From Candidatus Iainarchaeum sp. (GTDB lineage Archaea > Iainarchaeota > Iainarchaeia > Iainarchaeales > DTGL01), in NCBI GenBank assembly GCA_038736825.1, contig JAVYME010000048.1, positions 1-5,609 of the forward strand: DNA of 5,609 bases. Direction: 5' to 3'. The notes beneath the pieces are model-generated. The model did not search any database. It saw nothing but the letters and a program-made list of their open reading frames with translations, and had not been told where the DNA came from. The position numbers and the translations under genes were made by a program. This document shows, one piece after another, positions 1 to 5,609 of this stretch. The number at the start of each line of letters is the position of its first letter. The first letter of the stretch is position 1.

Positions 1-163
1 TTTTTTCCCCAAAAAGCCCATTCCTCAGTTGAAGTGATGTGACTAGATAATGGTGTTCGTCTGTAGAAGAATAGAATTGTGGAAAAAATGCCAAGTAAAA
101 CAAGGCAAATACTAGCACACAGGCAAAAATCTTTTTTTCTTGCATGTTTAATCCGTAGTTCAT
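1..163 (-). CDS. 5' fragment (about 54 codons, continues past the left edge) of a GT-C-fold, polyprenyl-phosphate-sugar-dependent membrane glycosyltransferase, ArnT/PMT-like (GT83/GT39 type)
   Basis: Absent from the supplied ORF track (too short). The reverse complement of 1..163 starts at ATG (163..161) and reads MNYGLNMQEKKIFACVLVFALFYLAFFPQFYSSTDEHHYLVTSLQLRNGLFGEK with no stop before the window edge. A second in-frame ATG lies at 145..143. The layout is a short basic N-terminus (KK), one hydrophobic helix, then D-E-x-x-Y-x-x-x-S-x-x-L-x-x-G. This lines up with the first-loop DE motif of ArnT (PDETRYAEISREMLASG in E. coli ArnT, from memory) and of PMT-family enzymes. Only 54 residues are visible, so the family call is tentative. 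Confidence 0.5.
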   Translation of the reverse strand, partial: MNYGLNMQEKKIFACVLVFALFYLAFFPQFYSSTDEHHYLVTSLQLRNGLFGEK

Positions 164-177
164 GCAAGTATTTGCCT
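121..177. repeat. Nested inverted repeat: inner arms CTTGCATG (139..146) and CATGCAAG (161..168) with a 14-nt spacer; outer arms AGGCAAA (121..127) and TTTGCCT (171..177)
   Basis: Both arm pairs are perfect reverse complements on direct reading. Each inner arm contains one of the two candidate minus-strand ATG codons of the GT-C-like ORF (163..161 and 145..143). AGGCAAA also occurs as a direct copy at 104..110. Function is unknown; an operator or a start-codon-sequestering RNA hairpin are possibilities. Confidence 0.6.
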
Positions 178-185
178 AAGAACTG

Positions 186-191
186 TTTAAA
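186..191 (-). promoter_or_regulatory. TATA-like box (TTTAAA) for the minus-strand GT-C-like gene
   Basis: The palindromic TTTAAA is centred about 25.5 nt upstream of the minus-strand ATG at 163. There is no Shine-Dalgarno motif in between. This fits an archaeal TATA box about 26 nt upstream of the start of a leaderless transcript. AT-rich spacers produce such hexamers by chance, so confidence is low. Confidence 0.3.
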
Positions 192-247
192 AAAATGTAA
201 TGGCAAATGAGAAAAAATCGAGTCATGTACCAAAAATTGCGCTATTT

Positions 248-253
248 TTTAAA
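248..253 (+). promoter_or_regulatory. TATA-like box (TTTAAA) for the plus-strand flippase-like/GNAT gene
   Basis: TTTAAA is centred about 26.5 nt upstream of the ATG at 277, and no Shine-Dalgarno motif precedes either 277 or the GTG at 256. It mirrors the box at 186..191 for the divergent gene. If real, it rules out the GTG at 256 as the start. Confidence 0.3.
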
Positions 254-276
254 AAGTGAACACTCAAAGTTATTTT

Positions 277-1611
277 ATGGGCGTCAACAAAAGAAACATT
301 TTATTGAATGCGATCAGGATACTTTTCACCATAGTTTTGGTAGTAGCAATATTTTTCTTTGTTGGACCAGAAAGGATATTGGACTCCATTGTAAATTTCA
401 ATCTTTTTTTCCTTCCAGCAATAATACTTTTGATGGGAGCAATACTTCTTTTCGGTGCCATCGCAGTGTTTGTGCTCCTACCGCCAGAAAAAAAAATAGA
501 TTTTTCAATTTTCCTTAAAGCATATCTTTCCAGTTGGGCTGTCGGCCACATTTTTCCTGGAAAAATGGGTGAGTTTTCGCTTCCCTTTTTTTTGAAAGAT
601 GCCATCCCAACAGGCCAGACATTGGCAATAGTTCTTGTTGAAAAACTTGTTTCTTTTATAGTTCTTTTCTTTTTTGGGTTAATATTTTTTTTAAAGTTCG
701 GCTTGGATTTTTTTTCAATTACTGTATTTTCTTTGATTGCCCTAATAGCCGTTCTTTTCTTTATTGTAAGTCCTTTTGGCAGAGAGTTGCTCAAAAGAAC
801 CATTTTCAGGCAAAAAAAGGAGCTCTTTGTGGGATTTTATAGCACCCTCAAAGCCTGCGCCATAGAAAGGAAAAAAGCACTCGTGATGACAGTGGTATTC
901 ACCACCTTAAGGTCACTTGCAATGGGGCTTTCGCTTTCCTTAATACTATTGGGTTTTGGCTTTTCAGCTGATTTAATTGATCTTACTGCTCTTACTTCTG
1001 CTGTGACATTGATTGCATTTGTTCCCGTCACAATCAGTGGACTTGGCTTGAGGGAGGGCTCTTTTGTTTTCCTTTCTTCTTTTCTCGGGTTATCTAGCGC
1101 TTCAGCAGCAGGCGCAATGGTGATCGTGAATTTGATCAATTACCTTGTCGTGCTATTTATTTTCTATTTCCTGCTTTCTCGGCATATGCCAAAATTGTTT
1201 GGCAAAATAGCAAAAAGAAAACAAAAATGCAGAAAAAGCTTTTTGCGCTCTCCCCAAAAGGAAAAGCTCTTGCTTTCATGTGGCGTGATTACCAAACCAG
1301 GTGAAGCTCTAAAGACAAAGCTTGAGATAGAAAAGAAAATTGGCGGTCAGCTTGTGGGCATTGCCGGCATTTCAGTAAGATATGGTTTCATCCCAGCCCT
1401 TTTCCTTGCAGTAGACGAAAAACACCGAAGCAAAGGCATTGGAACAGAATTGGTAAAGGAATTATTGAAAAAAAAGAAAGGACCAGTATTCCTTACAGTA
1501 ACTAGACATGATTCGCCACAGTTGAGTATCTACAAAAAAAACGGCTTTAGGAAATTAATGAATTGGAGGACCATACGTGGCACCAAAACAATGATAATGT
1601 TCCATTTTTGA
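277..1611 (+). CDS. Fusion protein: N-terminal LPG_synthase_TM / UPF0104 flippase-like polytopic membrane domain (about 8 TM) plus a C-terminal minimal GNAT-type N-acyltransferase domain
   Basis: The maximal ORF is 256..1611 (GTG at 256); the first ATG is at 277 (MGVNKRN...), which I prefer. Membrane-domain hallmarks are HIFPGKMGEFSLPFFLKD and VPVTISGLGLREGSFVFL, matching the conserved P-x-G-E and GlG-x-E motifs of the MprF flippase-type family. About 8 hydrophobic segments are followed by a strongly basic linker (KIAKRKQKCRKSFLR). The C-terminal part reads QLVGIAGISVRYGFIPALFLAVDEKHRSKGIGTELVKELL ... LSIYKKNGFRKL. This is GNAT motif A (R-x-x-G-x-G, codons 1426..1443) plus the motif-B-like YxxxGF. 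Confidence 0.8.
   Translation: MGVNKRNILLNAIRILFTIVLVVAIFFFVGPERILDSIVNFNLFFLPAIILLMGAILLFGAIAVFVLLPPEKKIDFSIFLKAYLSSWAVGHIFPGKMGEFSLPFFLKDAIPTGQTLAIVLVEKLVSFIVLFFFGLIFFLKFGLDFFSITVFSLIALIAVLFFIVSPFGRELLKRTIFRQKKELFVGFYSTLKACAIERKKALVMTVVFTTLRSLAMGLSLSLILLGFGFSADLIDLTALTSAVTLIAFVPVTISGLGLREGSFVFLSSFLGLSSASAAGAMVIVNLINYLVVLFIFYFLLSRHMPKLFGKIAKRKQKCRKSFLRSPQKEKLLLSCGVITKPGEALKTKLEIEKKIGGQLVGIAGISVRYGFIPALFLAVDEKHRSKGIGTELVKELLKKKKGPVFLTVTRHDSPQLSIYKKNGFRKLMNWRTIRGTKTMIMFHF
1288..1608 (+). other. GNAT acyltransferase domain portion of the 277..1611 fusion (approximate boundaries)
   Basis: Covers residues about 345..451 of the 256-numbered ORF. Includes beta-strand-like EIEKKIGGQLVGIAGISV, the acetyl-CoA pyrophosphate-binding-type loop HRSKGIG, and YKKNGF. 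It is shorter than a canonical GNAT unless the basic segment from the in-frame ATG at 1186 is counted, which would give 141 aa. Confidence 0.6.
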
Positions 1612-1680: not shown

Positions 1681-2619
1681 ATGATTTTGGTTACAGGGTG
1701 TTTTGGGTTTTTAGTCTCGAATCTTTGCAATAACTTAGTTAAACGCGAAAAAATAGTTGGTCTAGATTTGTTTGATGGGAAAAGAAACTTGGAGAAAGAG
1801 TTTACCTTTGTAAAATCAGAGAATTTTATCTTGGCGAGGGCAGACATTTCAAATACGCATGATTTAAGGCGCGTATTCAAAAAATACAAATTTGAGAAAG
1901 TCGTGCACTTGGCTGCCAAATCAGAACCACGAAGCCAAAAAAGCAAGGCTAATAGTTATGTGATCACCAATGTAATCGGCACCCTTAATTTGCTGGAAGA
2001 GTGCAGAAAAAACCGTGTTAAAAAAGTGGTTTTTGCATCAACTTCCAATATTTATGGCTTGGCCAAGGCTCCTTTTAATGAGGAAAAAACCAAGTGCTGC
2101 CAGATCTCTGCATATGCAATGACAAAACTGTGTGGAGAATTGCTTTGCAAAATTTACTCTACGAACTATTTCATAGATATACCCTGCTTAAGGTTTTCTA
2201 CAGTGTACGGCGAAAATGGACGCAAGGACATGGCTGTTGAAAAATTCACAAAATCCATATTAAGTGGGCGAAAGATAAAAAAATTTGGGAACGGGGAAAG
2301 CAAAAGGGATTACCTCTATGTGGGTGATGCTGTCAATGCAGTGCTAAGGTCGCTCGAACTCCGCCTCGGGTTTGAAATAATTAACATCGGTTCAGGCAGG
2401 GCAATATCAATAAATGAGCTCATTAACCTTATAGAAAAAGAAACAGGCAGAAAGGCAATTGTGGAGATCGTGCCTGAACCGCTTGAAAACTTGCCGACAA
2501 ATTTGCTTGAAATATCAAAGGCAAAACGCCTGCTCAACTGGAAACCAAAAGTGCAGATTGAAGATGGAATAAGAGAAATTTGCAGGAAAAAAGTGAGCCG
2601 GATTGTAAAAAAGAACTGA
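1681..2619 (+). CDS. NAD(P)-dependent nucleotide-sugar epimerase/dehydratase, extended SDR family (GalE/UXS-like)
   Basis: N-terminal Rossmann motif LVTGCFGFLVSNL, an acidic residue after beta-2 (VGLDLF), HLAAKS, NVIGTLNLLEE, the catalytic Ser region FASTSNIYG, YxxxK as YAMTK (Y145/K149), RFSTVYGENGR, and GNGESKRDYLYVGDAV. All are classic extended-SDR landmarks in the expected order. Confidence 0.9.
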   Translation: MILVTGCFGFLVSNLCNNLVKREKIVGLDLFDGKRNLEKEFTFVKSENFILARADISNTHDLRRVFKKYKFEKVVHLAAKSEPRSQKSKANSYVITNVIGTLNLLEECRKNRVKKVVFASTSNIYGLAKAPFNEEKTKCCQISAYAMTKLCGELLCKIYSTNYFIDIPCLRFSTVYGENGRKDMAVEKFTKSILSGRKIKKFGNGESKRDYLYVGDAVNAVLRSLELRLGFEIINIGSGRAISINELINLIEKETGRKAIVEIVPEPLENLPTNLLEISKAKRLLNWKPKVQIEDGIREICRKKVSRIVKKN

Positions 2620-2637: not shown

Positions 2638-3735
2638 ATGGCCAAAATTGCAATACTTTGCCCGAGAACTCCAAGGCTTTACTCTGCAGGCATAGAAACC
2701 TCAGTAATTCATGTTGGTGATGGGTTGAAAAAAGCTGGCTTTGAAGTGGAAATCTTTACAACTGCAAAAAAGCCCGAAAAAAATGCTTGCTTGAACGGAA
2801 TTCCAATTCACGAATTTCCCGCTTTTGCCCCAAGCGATGCATATTTTTTCTCCCCGCAACTTTATTTTGCAGTGAAAAAATCCAGAGCAGACATAATTCA
2901 CTGCAATGGCTATAACAATCTCGTAACACTACTTGGAATGCTTGCAAAAAAAAAGAACCAAAGGCTGATTGTCACCCTTAACAGTTCAGGCCCTTCCTCT
3001 GCCTTTAGAAAACTTCTCTGGAGCCCATATTCCCTGCTTTTCAACCTTTTTTCAAAAAAAGCCGACTTTTTCGTCTGCGTTTCCAAATTCGAACTTGAAA
3101 TCTTTTCAAAAAAAATAAGCGCTCCACGTGAAAGATTCGTTTTTATCCCAAACGGAGTCGATATTGACTTCATCAAGAGCGTGAAAGCTGGCAAAAAAGG
3201 CAATTACCTGATTTCAATAGGCAGGCTTGTCAAAAACAAGGGCTTTCATCACATTTTGAAGGCGTTTCCAAAAGTGCTTGAAGAGTTTCCATCACTCAGG
3301 CTGAAAATTGTCGGCGAAGGCCCTTACAAGAAAGAGCTTGAAAGAATGGCAATGAAACTTGGAATTTTGGAAAAAGTGGATTTTGAGCCTTGGATTCCTT
3401 TTTCAAGGCGTGAAGACTTGGTCAGGCTTTTGAAAAAGGCAAGGGCTTTTGTGTTCTTGAGCGCTTACGAGTCACAAGGAATTGTGGTGAGCGAAGCTAT
3501 TGCTGCTGGAACGCCATGCATTGTGACTGAAAATTCTGGGTTGAAAGAATTTGTGGAGAATTCTGGCGCATTGGGTGTGAAAAACCCTGAAAATTCTGAA
3601 GAAGTAAGCGAGAAAATAATTTTGGTAATGAAAAACCCAAAAAAATTCAAGCCGAAAAAGGAAACTGTTTGGAGCTGGAAAAAAGTGATCCAGACAACAG
3701 TCAAGGAATTCAAAAAACTACAGCCTATTTCTTGA
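2638..3735 (+). CDS. Glycosyltransferase family 4 (GT-B fold, Glycos_transf_1 type)
   Basis: N-terminal KIAILCP...GIETSVIHVGDGLKKAGFEVEIFT, central LISIGRLVKNKGFHHILKAF...LKIVGEGP, and the EX7E motif as E-SQGIVVS-E (3469..3495) followed by AIAAGTPCIV. These are typical retaining GT4 signatures. The donor and acceptor sugars cannot be inferred. Confidence 0.9.
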   Translation: MAKIAILCPRTPRLYSAGIETSVIHVGDGLKKAGFEVEIFTTAKKPEKNACLNGIPIHEFPAFAPSDAYFFSPQLYFAVKKSRADIIHCNGYNNLVTLLGMLAKKKNQRLIVTLNSSGPSSAFRKLLWSPYSLLFNLFSKKADFFVCVSKFELEIFSKKISAPRERFVFIPNGVDIDFIKSVKAGKKGNYLISIGRLVKNKGFHHILKAFPKVLEEFPSLRLKIVGEGPYKKELERMAMKLGILEKVDFEPWIPFSRREDLVRLLKKARAFVFLSAYESQGIVVSEAIAAGTPCIVTENSGLKEFVENSGALGVKNPENSEEVSEKIILVMKNPKKFKPKKETVWSWKKVIQTTVKEFKKLQPIS

Positions 3736-4659: not shown

Positions 4660-4663
4660 CCTC
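4660..4663 (-). promoter_or_regulatory. Shine-Dalgarno-like GAGG for the GT2 gene, overlapping the aminotransferase stop codon (TGAGG)
   Basis: The minus strand reads TGAGGCGCACTAAATG. GAGG is followed by an 8-nt spacer before the ATG at 4651..4649, and only 10 nt separate the two CDSs. This suggests translational coupling. Confidence 0.45.
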
Positions 4664-5609
4664 ACATTTTTTTTAATTCACTGCAAACAAAATCTATTTC
4701 TTCACTTTTAAGGCTTGCTCCAGAAGGCAAAGTAAGGCCGTGCAAGTGCAAATGCCTGCTTACAGGAAATTTTTCTTTGGTTTTGTAAAAAGGAAGCTCT
4801 GAGAGTGGTGTGAAAAAAGGCCTTGTTTCAATTCCTTTGGCTTTTAGGGCTTTTGCCACTTGGGCGGCTGGTTTGAATGGTTTTTCCAGGGTAATGCTGA
4901 AAAACCACCATGAACTGTCAGCACCCCTTGGAATTTCTTGGAATGAAATTCCTTTAAGCCCTGAAAGAAGGTCCAAGTAATGCTTTGCTATTTCCCGCTT
5001 TCTTTTCAAAAGCCTGTCAATTCCCTCTAGTTGCGCCAGCCCGAAAGCCGCTTGAAGGTTTGTAAAGCGAAAATTGTAACCCAAAACATCGTGGTAGAAT
5101 TTGCGGGTTTTGCTTTTTCCCTGGTCTTTCAAAATGTTTACTCTTTCAATGAATTTTTTGTTATTGCTTAAAACCATTCCGCCTTCGCCAGTGGTGATGA
5201 GTTTGTTTCCATAAAAAGAAAAAATTGAGGCATTTCCAAGCGCACCGCATTTTTTTCCAAAGTATTCTGCTCCATGGGCTTCTGCAGCGTCCTCTAAAAC
5301 AAATAGGGAGTGCTCTTTTGCTATTTTATTGATTTCTTTCATTTTTGCAGGGCAGCCATACAAGTGAACTGGAATAATGGCTTTTGTTTTTGGTGTTATT
5401 TTTTGTTCAATTTTTTTTACATCAATGTTCCAAGAGGTTTCTTCAACATCAACAAAAACAGGTTTTGCCCCGCAAAAAACAACAGCGTTTGCAGTGGAAA
5501 CAAAAGTCAGGTTTGGCACAATCACTTCATCGCCTTCTCCAATGCCTGCTGCCAAAAGAGCAACATGCAATGCAGCAGTGCCATTAGCAATACTGCTTGC
5601 ATATTTTAC
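4662..5609 (-). CDS. DegT/DnrJ/EryC1/StrS-family PLP-dependent nucleotide-sugar aminotransferase (partial; N-terminus beyond the right edge)
   Basis: The track start at 5570 is a TTG read as Met. The frame stays open to the window edge and reads VKYASSIANGTAALHVALLAAGIGEGDEVIVPNLTF, the canonical family N-terminal region, so the gene is truncated by the window. Other motifs are EDAAEAHGAEYFGK, the PLP-lysine motif SFYGNKLITTGEGG (Lys codon 5202..5204), GYNFRFTNLQAAFGLAQLE and ETRPFF. The position aminated (C3 or C4) and the sugar cannot be told from sequence. Confidence 0.92.
   Translation of the reverse strand, partial: VKYASSIANGTAALHVALLAAGIGEGDEVIVPNLTFVSTANAVVFCGAKPVFVDVEETSWNIDVKKIEQKITPKTKAIIPVHLYGCPAKMKEINKIAKEHSLFVLEDAAEAHGAEYFGKKCGALGNASIFSFYGNKLITTGEGGMVLSNNKKFIERVNILKDQGKSKTRKFYHDVLGYNFRFTNLQAAFGLAQLEGIDRLLKRKREIAKHYLDLLSGLKGISFQEIPRGADSSWWFFSITLEKPFKPAAQVAKALKAKGIETRPFFTPLSELPFYKTKEKFPVSRHLHLHGLTLPSGASLKSEEIDFVCSELKKM

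Follow-up and report, generated by a model that had tools for sequence, protein, structure and literature searches.

What might an archaeal cell achieve by joining a predicted lipid-flippase domain to a very small acetyltransferase within one polypeptide? The question is raised by a gene of a Candidatus Diapherotrites (DPANN) metagenome-assembled genome (MAG), carried on a stretch of DNA (contig JAVYME010000048.1; hereafter the window) that represents one entire contig of 5,609 bp. The product of this gene combines a PF03706 membrane domain, which resembles the first subdomain of the flippase MprF, with a basic juxtamembrane linker and a minimal GNAT domain, and is most likely a bifunctional inner-face and transmembrane component of an Arn-, Gtr- or AglD-AglS-type cassette.

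The fusion open reading frame (ORF; Table 1) is uninterrupted, and encodes 451 amino acids (aa) from a GTG at position 256, or 444 aa from the ATG at position 277, which is the start chosen for the corresponding NCBI protein (MEM0360837.1; annotated solely as 'flippase-like domain-containing protein'). The Pfam model PF03706 (LPG_synthase_TM) covers aa 24-301 almost end to end (profile positions 3-300 of 302), scoring 94.3 bits (E 1.2e-26) where the cutoff is 33.4, and the NCBIfam 'flippase-like' model TIGR00374 passes its own cutoff with less margin (47.5 bits; cutoff 43.2). Toward the C-terminus (aa ~361-444) the GNAT models PF13508 (38.8 bits over aa 363-432; cutoff 27), PF00583 (37.8 bits; cutoff 20.7), PF13673 (28.9 bits; cutoff 23.6) and FR47 all score above their cutoffs. 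An earlier sequence-only reading had proposed just such a single frame joining PF03706 to a short GNAT across a highly basic linker, and anticipated these profile matches at the respective ends; all of this is borne out, and the motifs which it singled out lie at aa 100-107 (FPGKMGEF; nt 553-576), aa 260-268 (ISGLGLREG; nt 1033-1059) and aa 391-396 (RSKGIG, or motif A; nt 1426-1443).

To place these domains in a structural context, the full-length protein was modeled with AlphaFold2 from a 147-sequence alignment (mean pLDDT 91.4, pTM 0.80), with low pLDDT only near aa 320-330; the linker is modeled as a cytoplasmic continuation of the last transmembrane (TM) helix and then a short break. Foldseek matches to the whole 451-aa model comprise GNATs only, and as a result the relationship to MprF surfaced only once the membrane half was modeled separately (pLDDT 91.2, pTM 0.88). 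The six best matches to this half in the PDB are all cryo-EM structures of MprF, from Rhizobium etli (7f47), R. tropici (7duw, 6lvf) and Pseudomonas aeruginosa (9j8s, 9j8q, 9goe), with a Foldseek probability of 1.0, TM-scores of 0.54-0.60 and 313-339 aligned columns; the TM-scores of matches ranked below these six are at most 0.28. The expectation that the membrane half would resemble MprF and the tail a GNAT is thereby upheld in structure as well as in sequence profiles.

In the fusion model TM1 and TM2 are followed by a re-entrant helix pair, 3a/3b, with the FPGKMGEF motif at its tip, then by TM4, TM5, a basic cytoplasmic loop (aa 172-207; 10 K/R), TM6, a second pair, 7a/7b, with SGLGLRE at its tip, and TM8 (aa 281-309), downstream of which there are no further hydrophobic helices, only the linker and the GNAT. 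This succession agrees with Subdomain 1 of R. tropici MprF (RtMprF), which consists of TM1, TM2, half-helix pair 3a/3b, TM4-6, pair 7a/7b and TM8 in two inverted repeats, and in which TM8 ends in the cytoplasm (PMC8131360). The 'about 8 TM' originally counted from the sequence can thus be specified, as in MprF Subdomain 1, to six TM helices that cross the membrane fully and two pairs of helices that cross half of it. Under an MprF-like topology the cytoplasmic loops and linker together contain 26 K/R residues, versus 1 in the external loops. Modeled topology and charge distribution together place the GNAT in the cytoplasm, as had been predicted, rather than outside the cell, and acetyl-CoA should therefore be accessible to it. 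The tip motifs P-G-K/R-x-G-E/D and P-x-T/S-x-x-G-L-G-x-R/K-E, and a Lys in TM4, are present in the window protein and at least 90% conserved among 142 relatives; the protein has each of the clade-conserved residues P101, G102, K103, G105, E106, K130, P257, G262, G264, R266, E267 and Y296.

Resemblance to MprF extends no further than Subdomain 1, and identity as an MprF was rejected: the fusion lacks Subdomain 2 (TM9-14), the tRNA-dependent synthase (no match to PF09924/DUF2156 at E<=0.1 in Pfam), and the gate Arg of the YRxxY motif in TM8, which here reads NLINY. The TM7b Glu with which this Arg pairs in MprF (PMC8131360) is present as E267, and of the motif itself the clade keeps only Y296. 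Neither the 147-sequence clade profile, searched against all PDB sequences at E<=10, nor the fusion profile recovered MprF chains, and the correspondence of G262...E267 with G275...E280 of RtMprF is drawn only from their spacing and their position at the 7a/7b tip, as MprF could not be aligned to the fusion residue by residue. Contrary to what had been supposed, MprF is not the closest paradigm; the membrane domain, judged by sequence, is a member of the arCOG00899/COG0392 (AglD2/YbhN/PplT) flippase-like family. Makarova et al. (2015) predicted a role for arCOG00899/PF03706 proteins as flippases of the lipid-linked sugars used in archaeal glycosylation, and noted their proximity to a PMT/STT3-like protein and an AglD-like GT2 glycosyltransferase (PMC5898192). 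Flippase activity in the PF03706 family has been demonstrated for MprF alone (PMC11980842) and is a prediction for its archaeal members (PMC5898192), and by homology the PF03706 domain of the fusion would likewise translocate a lipid or lipid-linked sugar. Among its relatives is a 603-aa protein with two tandem PF03706 domains (P0010), which may bear on whether standalone Subdomain-1 proteins dimerize to replace the second subdomain of MprF.

The GNAT is unusually small. DSSP assigns to the model one short helix (aa 333-342), followed by beta2-beta3-beta4-alpha3-beta5-alpha4-beta6-beta7; the beta1-alpha1-alpha2 arm, which usually forms part of the acceptor site, is absent. The resulting module of ~115-120 aa falls within the ~105-140 aa originally estimated, and its closest non-fused relatives are equally short proteins of 122-125 aa. 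About 50 GNAT structures occupy the best 50 Foldseek matches to the whole model (96-110 residues aligned at 2.1-3.6 A; E ~4e-4). Motif A (R391-S-K-G-I-G396) lies on beta4-alpha3, and conforms to Q/R-x-x-G-x-G in all six aligned fusions described below, with the Q variant in P0008. All six also keep the Tyr of I-Y-x-x-x-G-F, down to 29% overall identity; in the window this motif is I-Y-K-K-N-G-F (nt 1528-1548), and the conservation of Tyr426 is consistent with a role as general acid. Since the 29 columns that are invariant among the GNATs of these fusions, motif A and the Tyr included, exceed those in the membrane half, the module appears to be a functional enzyme and not a decaying appendage. 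The profile matches support a predicted acetyl-CoA-type, as opposed to tRNA-type, activity, as the sequence-only reading had it.

The fusion architecture is genuine and rare. When 1.84 billion cluster representatives were searched exhaustively with HMMER, 5,159 matches were obtained (1,177 below 1e-10), and among the best 150 of these 5,159 just four clusters (P0001, P0006, P0007 and P0008) match the profile end to end, nearly all the remainder being standalone PF03706 proteins of ~300 aa; more distant fusions of PF03706 to unrelated GNATs may occur among the lower-ranked matches. With P0003 and P0004 there are six full-length fusions, encoded on separate contigs and 29-46% identical, and both PF03706 and a GNAT are found in 6/6. 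A seventh, from a Candidatus Iainarchaeum MAG, is distributed over two contigs, of which one (L003) ends in the linker and the other (L017) begins there, with an exact 23-nt overlap and a continuous frame. The seven independent members are 29-61% identical, and every named one belongs to Diapherotrites/Iainarchaeum; each fusion cluster consists of a single member sequence, and 1/185,579 GTDB species representatives carries the architecture. Word-indexed protein searches added almost nothing to the HMMER set, and degenerate-pattern scans of metagenome contigs (two scans) and viral contigs (one) gave no additional fusion loci, while that of GTDB returned only the known Iainarchaeum MAG. The possibility that the fusion arose from a frameshift or from misassembly was rejected on account of these seven independent members, one of them rebuilt across the 23-nt overlap. 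No published description of a PF03706-GNAT fusion was found in the literature. A preprint on the PplT family enumerates 148 domain architectures for this membrane domain, with partners including aminoacyl-phosphatidylglycerol synthase, GT-A, GT-B, kinase, HAD, O-antigen ligase, SAM-methyltransferase and phosphotransferase domains, and mentions no acetyltransferase (10.1101/2022.03.11.483950); the claim that this fusion is uncharacterized thus stands.

Two sets of related genes suggest what kind of enzyme occupies the C-terminal position. In P0014 and P0029, which count among the closest relatives of this membrane domain, a SAM-methyltransferase sits exactly where the GNAT does. The former (L011:5539-7074, in a Diapherotrites MAG) is embedded in the same cassette as the fusion gene, here encoding a short-chain dehydrogenase/reductase (SDR), an NTP-transferase, a GT2, a GT-C glycosyltransferase, a GT2 of the dolichyl phosphate (Dol-P) type, the PF03706-methyltransferase itself, a DegT-family aminotransferase and another SDR. 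NCBIfam did not distinguish N- from O-type among these methyltransferase modules, and N-methylation in place of N-acetylation is a guess. In a second arrangement (L014, 809-3023; L015; L016) the parts are encoded separately and co-directionally, as a 125-aa mini-GNAT, a Formyl_trans_N protein whose best NCBIfam match is a weak one to dTDP-4-amino-4,6-dideoxyglucose formyltransferase (48 bits), and a standalone PF03706 protein that is 30% identical to the membrane domain of the window; a methyltransferase and a PMT_2-like GT-C lie on the divergent side. Module swap and split genes together tie the mini-GNAT functionally to PF03706, and indicate that what occupies the C-terminal slot is a transferase of small groups onto the cargo of the pathway. 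In the split loci a large CTP_transf_like plus PPDK_N protein follows the PF03706 gene. Elsewhere, a 122-aa mini-GNAT (P0159; L012:9001-9369 and L013:586-954) that is 50% identical to the GNAT of the window has no link to PF03706; in L012 it is surrounded by ~20 small ORFs that lack Pfam or PHROG matches, a 1,148-aa ORF and a STAND/DnaA-like ATPase. This context may represent a mobile element or archaeal virus, although a PHROG scan gave no matches for the small ORFs.

The exchange of GNAT for methyltransferase within a sugar cassette, and the formyltransferase next to the free mini-GNAT, point to small-molecule chemistry. They accordingly weigh against the possibility that the GNAT is a membrane-anchored protein N-acetyltransferase of the NAA60/RimI/NatC kind, whose targets would be lysines or cytoplasmic ends of proteins in the membrane or of the glycosylation machinery, or else a non-catalytic, acetyl-CoA-binding regulator of the flippase. 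The best sequence and fold matches are indeed to Naa30, NAA60, RimI and ARD1-type enzymes, together with phosphinothricin acetyltransferases, and NAA60 is itself membrane-anchored. These matches are, however, weak and generic (E ~1e-4 to 1e-3; ~20% identity), and the alpha1-alpha2 region with which such enzymes bind peptides is absent here, such that we consider a protein substrate or a regulatory role improbable.

Table 1. Features of the 5,609-bp window, with coordinates, strand and the observations on which each assignment is based.
Feature	Coordinates	Strand	Basis or remarks
GT-C (PMT_2/ArnT/AglS-like), 5' end, first 54 codons	1..163	-	cut by contig end; SSxDEHH motif just after TM1
Divergent intergenic region between GT-C and fusion gene	164..255 (to 276 with ATG start)	.	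coordinates
Fusion ORF	256..1611	+	PF03706 membrane domain, basic linker, mini-GNAT; stop 1609-1611
Membrane domain, aa 1-309	256..1182	+	MprF-Subdomain-1 type; PF03706
Basic juxtamembrane linker, aa 310-337	1183..1266	+	11 K/R and 1 D/E in 28 residues
Minimal GNAT, aa 338-451	1267..1608	+	Pfam GNAT models, modeled fold
NAD-dependent SDR, sugar epimerase/reductase-like	1681..2619	+	profile matches, STSNIYG
GT4 (GT-B fold) glycosyltransferase	2638..3735	+	profile matches
GT2, polyprenyl/dolichyl-phosphate sugar synthase type (AglJ/PpgS/DPM/ArnC-like), two C-terminal TM helices	3725..4651	-	PF00535 108 bits
DegT/LegC/PseC/WecE-type pyridoxal-phosphate-dependent sugar aminotransferase	4662..5609	-	PF01041 350 bits, LegC family 303 bits

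The neighbors of the fusion gene (Table 1) confirm an amino-sugar and polyprenyl-phosphate glycosylation cluster, as was claimed from the sequence, rather than a phospholipid context. The GT-C fragment is recognizable by tblastn from the GT-C of L003, which is 57% identical over aa 1-54 (window 163..2), and which itself scores just above the PMT_2 cutoff (27.2 bits; cutoff 26.1). Full-length homologues of 494-499 aa occupy the same divergent position beside the fusion gene in L001, L002 (frameshifted), L003 and L007, and beside the PF03706-methyltransferase gene in L011. The GT2 of the window matches AglJ (134 bits), PpgS (99 bits) and, end to end (2-292), ArnC; it is the best-conserved gene of the cassette, with 68-73% identity between the window copy and those of L001, L007 and L011. 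The aminotransferase gene, directly upstream of GT2 in the same operon, has lost ~50 N-terminal residues at the contig end, to which its frame remains open, and is 67-70% identical to its counterparts in L001 and L007; by comparison the fusion protein is only 40-46% identical. An orthologue of the window GT4 (49% identical) adjoins the DegT gene in L009. The SDR of the window reads S-T-S-N-I-Y-G, with no acidic residue, at the catalytic Ser/Thr motif, where T-D-E stands in the RmlB of L007 and T-S-E in the DegT-adjacent SDRs; it shares just 26-30% identity with these proteins, is not an orthologue of the DegT-adjacent SDR, and is probably, on this sequence evidence, an epimerase or reductase and not a keto-forming enzyme.

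A fuller complement is encoded in the longest locus, L007, from a 36.6-kb contig. Its order begins with RmlB (438 bits against a cutoff of 365) and an RmlA-like gene, followed by a GT2 and the GT-C, which diverge from the fusion gene. Convergent with the latter are genes for a NodU-like carbamoyltransferase, the Dol-P-type GT2, DegT and a LegB-like SDR, the last three with overlapping stop and start codons; the gene arrangement in L017 is the same. The Dol-P-type GT2 and DegT recur in the window, L001, L007 and L017, and the LegB-like SDR so overlapped accompanies them in related loci. The family HMM found no other GNAT in the window or related loci, a regex screen for hexapeptide-repeat (left-handed beta-helix, LbH) acetyltransferases gave noise only, and the precomputed Pfam annotation of called genes, the main basis for the absence of LbH enzymes, contains no further acetyltransferase. 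As no other acetyltransferase was found in these loci, the fused GNAT is the only candidate for an N-acetyl step. Nor was a flippase of the GtrA, ArnE/F or Wzx type found in the window or related loci, a slot which the PF03706 domain would fill.

Several further features vary between loci. A carbamoyltransferase of the NodU/CmcH type (561-567 aa) is encoded right after, and convergently with, the fusion gene, upstream of the Dol-P-type GT2, at L002:3300-4985, L007:7479-9164 and L017:424-2127, in the place taken in the window by the SDR and GT4 genes; this suggests that in some lineages the transferred sugar also acquires an O-carbamoyl group. In the Iainarchaeum MAG a gene for a Fic-domain protein (L003:4494-5471, + strand) interrupts the glycosylation cassette, separating the RmlA-like gene from the GT2 and GT-C genes. 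Beside a standalone PF03706 relative, an operon of UDP-glucose dehydrogenase, SDR and DegT genes (L009:1902-5270) has the composition Ugd/ArnA-C/ArnB, a hint that within the clade certain cassettes make a 4-amino pentose like 4-amino-4-deoxyarabinose (Ara4N) and not a 4-amino-6-deoxyhexose. Directly downstream of the fusion gene in L001 (11355-11621, + strand), an 88-aa ORF matches only the last third of PF03706 (TM6-TM8), is 34% identical to window aa 232-311, and looks like the remnant of a duplicated or degraded second PF03706 copy.

Also in L001, and among the loci only there, a CDP-alcohol phosphatidyltransferase gene adjoins the fusion gene. This would suit a scheme in which the GNAT acetylates the headgroup amine of a membrane lipid (archaetidylethanolamine, archaetidylserine or a glucosamine lipid) and PF03706 flips the product, much as in the MprF, GpgSDF and HexSDF systems except that charge would be removed and not added; PF03706 domains are tied to aminolipid or aminoglycolipid metabolism in MprF, GpgF (PMC12713373) and HexF (PMC10128005). 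A lipid-synthesis gene is found in one locus only, however, whereas the conserved set comprises GT-C, the Dol-P-type GT2, DegT and SDR, and a headgroup substrate is therefore very improbable.

We tentatively favor, at a little short of even confidence, a reading of sequence and context in which the GNAT caps the amine made by DegT while the sugar is still attached to a nucleotide, and the PF03706 domain flips the resulting Dol-P-sugar, within a lipid-carrier glycosylation cassette. In this scheme an SDR would oxidize or dehydrate a nucleotide sugar to a 4-keto sugar, which DegT would convert to a 4-amino sugar; the mini-GNAT, tethered to TM8 at the cytoplasmic face, would N-acetylate the amine with acetyl-CoA, the nucleotide sugar being its more likely substrate; and the membrane-anchored GT2 would move the N-acetylated sugar onto dolichyl or polyprenyl phosphate. 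The sugar could be a 4-acetamido-4,6-dideoxyhexose, a bacillosamine-like sugar or an Ara4N-like pentose, and the nature of carrier and acceptor is likewise putative. Outside the cell, the divergent GT-C would finally attach the sugar to its acceptor, for instance a lipid or a protein glycan (of the S-layer or another protein). Between these last two steps, the PF03706 domain would carry the Dol-P-sugar to the outer leaflet, probably in an energy-independent, scramblase-like manner by analogy with P. aeruginosa MprF (PMC11980842). By virtue of the fusion, GT2, which loads the lipid, would stay close at the membrane to both the amine-capping enzyme and the flippase.

Several observations favor capping at the nucleotide-sugar stage. 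That the GNAT of the split loci is a soluble 125-aa protein is consistent with it, as is the cassette logic of dehydratase-type SDR, DegT, Dol-P-type GT2 and GT-C, which by analogy with the Pse, Leg, Pgl, enterobacterial common antigen and Arn pathways fits nucleotide-sugar acetylation equally well as, or better than, acetylation on the lipid. An N-acetyl step normally follows aminotransferases of this kind, as catalyzed by PseH, WecD, PglD and LegH, while ArnA is a formyltransferase; to our knowledge, all of these characterized aminotransferase-coupled N-acyltransferases act on nucleotide sugars. If the fused GNAT does so too, then the fusion would represent co-localization within one pathway and not direct hand-off.

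Other observations weigh against this preference. The SDR of the window lacks the dehydratase dyad, and a keto-forming enzyme is not encoded within the 5.6 kb. The best matches to the GNAT are the generic ones outlined above, with no PseH or WecD model among the NCBIfam matches of the fusion at E<=0.1 and neither enzyme in the best 50 Foldseek matches; further, the acceptor cannot be read from the structure because the alpha1-alpha2 arm is missing. A close homologue of the mini-GNAT resides in the unrelated small-ORF context of L012. The GT2 of the methyltransferase locus is 73% identical to that of the window, compared with 68-71% in the GNAT loci, which is easier to explain if capping follows lipid loading. 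As to transport, Subdomain 2 of MprF, which adds to the outer cavity, is absent from the fusion. More broadly, each catalytic and transport step is predicted from family, fold and genomic context.

The near-uniform GT2 leads to a second, less probable scheme, closer in its logic to MprF, in which GT2 loads the free amino sugar onto Dol-P, and the fused GNAT N-acetylates the lipid-linked sugar and hands it into the cytoplasmic cavity of its own flippase, such that acetylation licenses, drives or gates translocation. Equal conservation of GT2 (68-73%) alongside GNAT or methyltransferase partners suggests a common, uncapped donor, although 73% identity is no proof of the same donor specificity. 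The short basic linker to TM8 would set the active site at the membrane surface, where the membrane domain or the bilayer could replace the missing alpha1-alpha2 acceptor arm, and the two domains seem to be arranged in a defined way, to judge from the full-length pTM of 0.80. In the Arn pathway, ArnD provides a precedent for modifying a sugar once it is on the lipid. In MprF, furthermore, the modified lipid is synthesized beside Cavity C (PMC8131360). Set against these points are the habit of nucleotide-sugar acylation discussed above and the occurrence of the same mini-GNAT, in the split loci, as a free protein without a membrane anchor; we regard on-lipid acetylation as rather unlikely. The mechanistic coupling of acylation to translocation proposed in the sequence-only reading is thus not established, given that a soluble version exists and that acetylation of a nucleotide sugar suits the cassette at least as well.

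Earlier publications already cover the family of membrane domains, the flippase role predicted for it in the glycosylation systems of archaea, and its propensity for fusion with enzymes. What is new here is the GNAT partner, so far restricted to a handful of Diapherotrites/Iainarchaeum sequences; the exchangeable C-terminal module within one conserved cassette; and the very small form of GNAT (~115-125 aa), devoid of the arm that canonically binds the acceptor. Few candidate lipid flippases are as widespread in prokaryotes as PF03706 domains, of which only MprF has been tested, and the flipping of monosaccharides linked to Dol-P or undecaprenyl phosphate is poorly defined in archaea. Three genomic lines (fusion, methyltransferase swap and split genes) now tie a PF03706 domain to one amino-sugar and lipid-carrier pathway, and extend what little is known about how DPANN archaea glycosylate their cell surface. 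As a compact, confidently modeled protein of two domains and 451 aa, the fusion could allow chemistry and transport to be assayed together, and serve as a model for whether PF03706 flips polyprenyl-phosphate sugars. Interest would be considerably higher were acetylation mechanically coupled to flipping: the protein would then constitute a minimal, self-contained 'modify-then-flip' machine, whose C-terminal module (acetyl or methyl) decides which decorated sugar reaches the surface, and would offer experimental access to the long-sought Dol-P-monosaccharide flippase.

Comparison with known systems helps to situate the fusion. With MprF it shares the Subdomain 1 fold, including two re-entrant pairs with Gly-rich tips and a Glu five residues past the tip Gly, and a GNAT-fold transferase located on the cytoplasmic side and C-terminal to the membrane part; it differs in having neither Subdomain 2, nor the tandem-GNAT synthase of ~300 aa, nor YRxxY, and in its setting of glycosylation instead of phospholipid synthesis. 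GpgSDF of P. aeruginosa and HexSDF of Clostridioides difficile likewise encode a PF03706 'flippase', standalone in those cases, alongside enzymes whose chemistry concerns the N-acetyl group on a lipid-linked amino sugar. There, however, a deacetylase acts on a glycolipid or phosphatidylglycerol headgroup to yield a cationic lipid, whereas here an acetyltransferase is fused to the flippase domain, and the carrier is most likely polyprenyl phosphate. PseH and WecD (GNAT fold), and PglD and LegH (LbH fold), are comparable in the predicted capping of a 4-amino sugar, as the cluster encodes a LegC/PseC/WecE-like aminotransferase and, in related loci, the fused GNAT, the sole acetyltransferase found, is accompanied by DegT and a 4-keto-sugar-forming type of SDR. 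Unlike PseH and WecD, to which it has no specific sequence or fold match, the fused GNAT is far smaller (~115 aa, with no N-terminal arm) and membrane-tethered.

The cassette as a whole, with its SDR, DegT, N-acyl capping enzyme, GT2 with C-terminal TM helices, flippase and PMT_2/ArnT-type GT-C, recalls the Arn pathway and the three-component systems GtrA/B/V, PpgS/Rv3632/Rv3779 and AglD/AglR/AglS, of which the last, in Haloferax, makes Dol-P-mannose inside the cell, flips it and uses it outside by means of a GT-C (PMC3871713). It departs from these systems in that the putative capping enzyme is a GNAT (acetyl) and not a formyltransferase, with no deacylase seen; in that PF03706 occupies the flippase slot that is filled elsewhere by SMR-like ArnE/F, GtrA or Wzx-like AglR; and in the union of capping enzyme and flippase in one polypeptide. 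The closest likeness is to the AglD2/YbhN/PplT family, with which the fusion shares its type of membrane domain, an archaeal glycosylation context featuring a PMT/STT3-like GT-C and an AglD/DPM-like GT2 (PMC5898192), and the habit of fusion to cytoplasmic enzymes, which is known for the GT2 of AglD and for SAM-methyltransferases (10.1101/2022.03.11.483950). In AglD the partner is an N-terminal GT2; in the protein described here, it is a C-terminal minimal GNAT.

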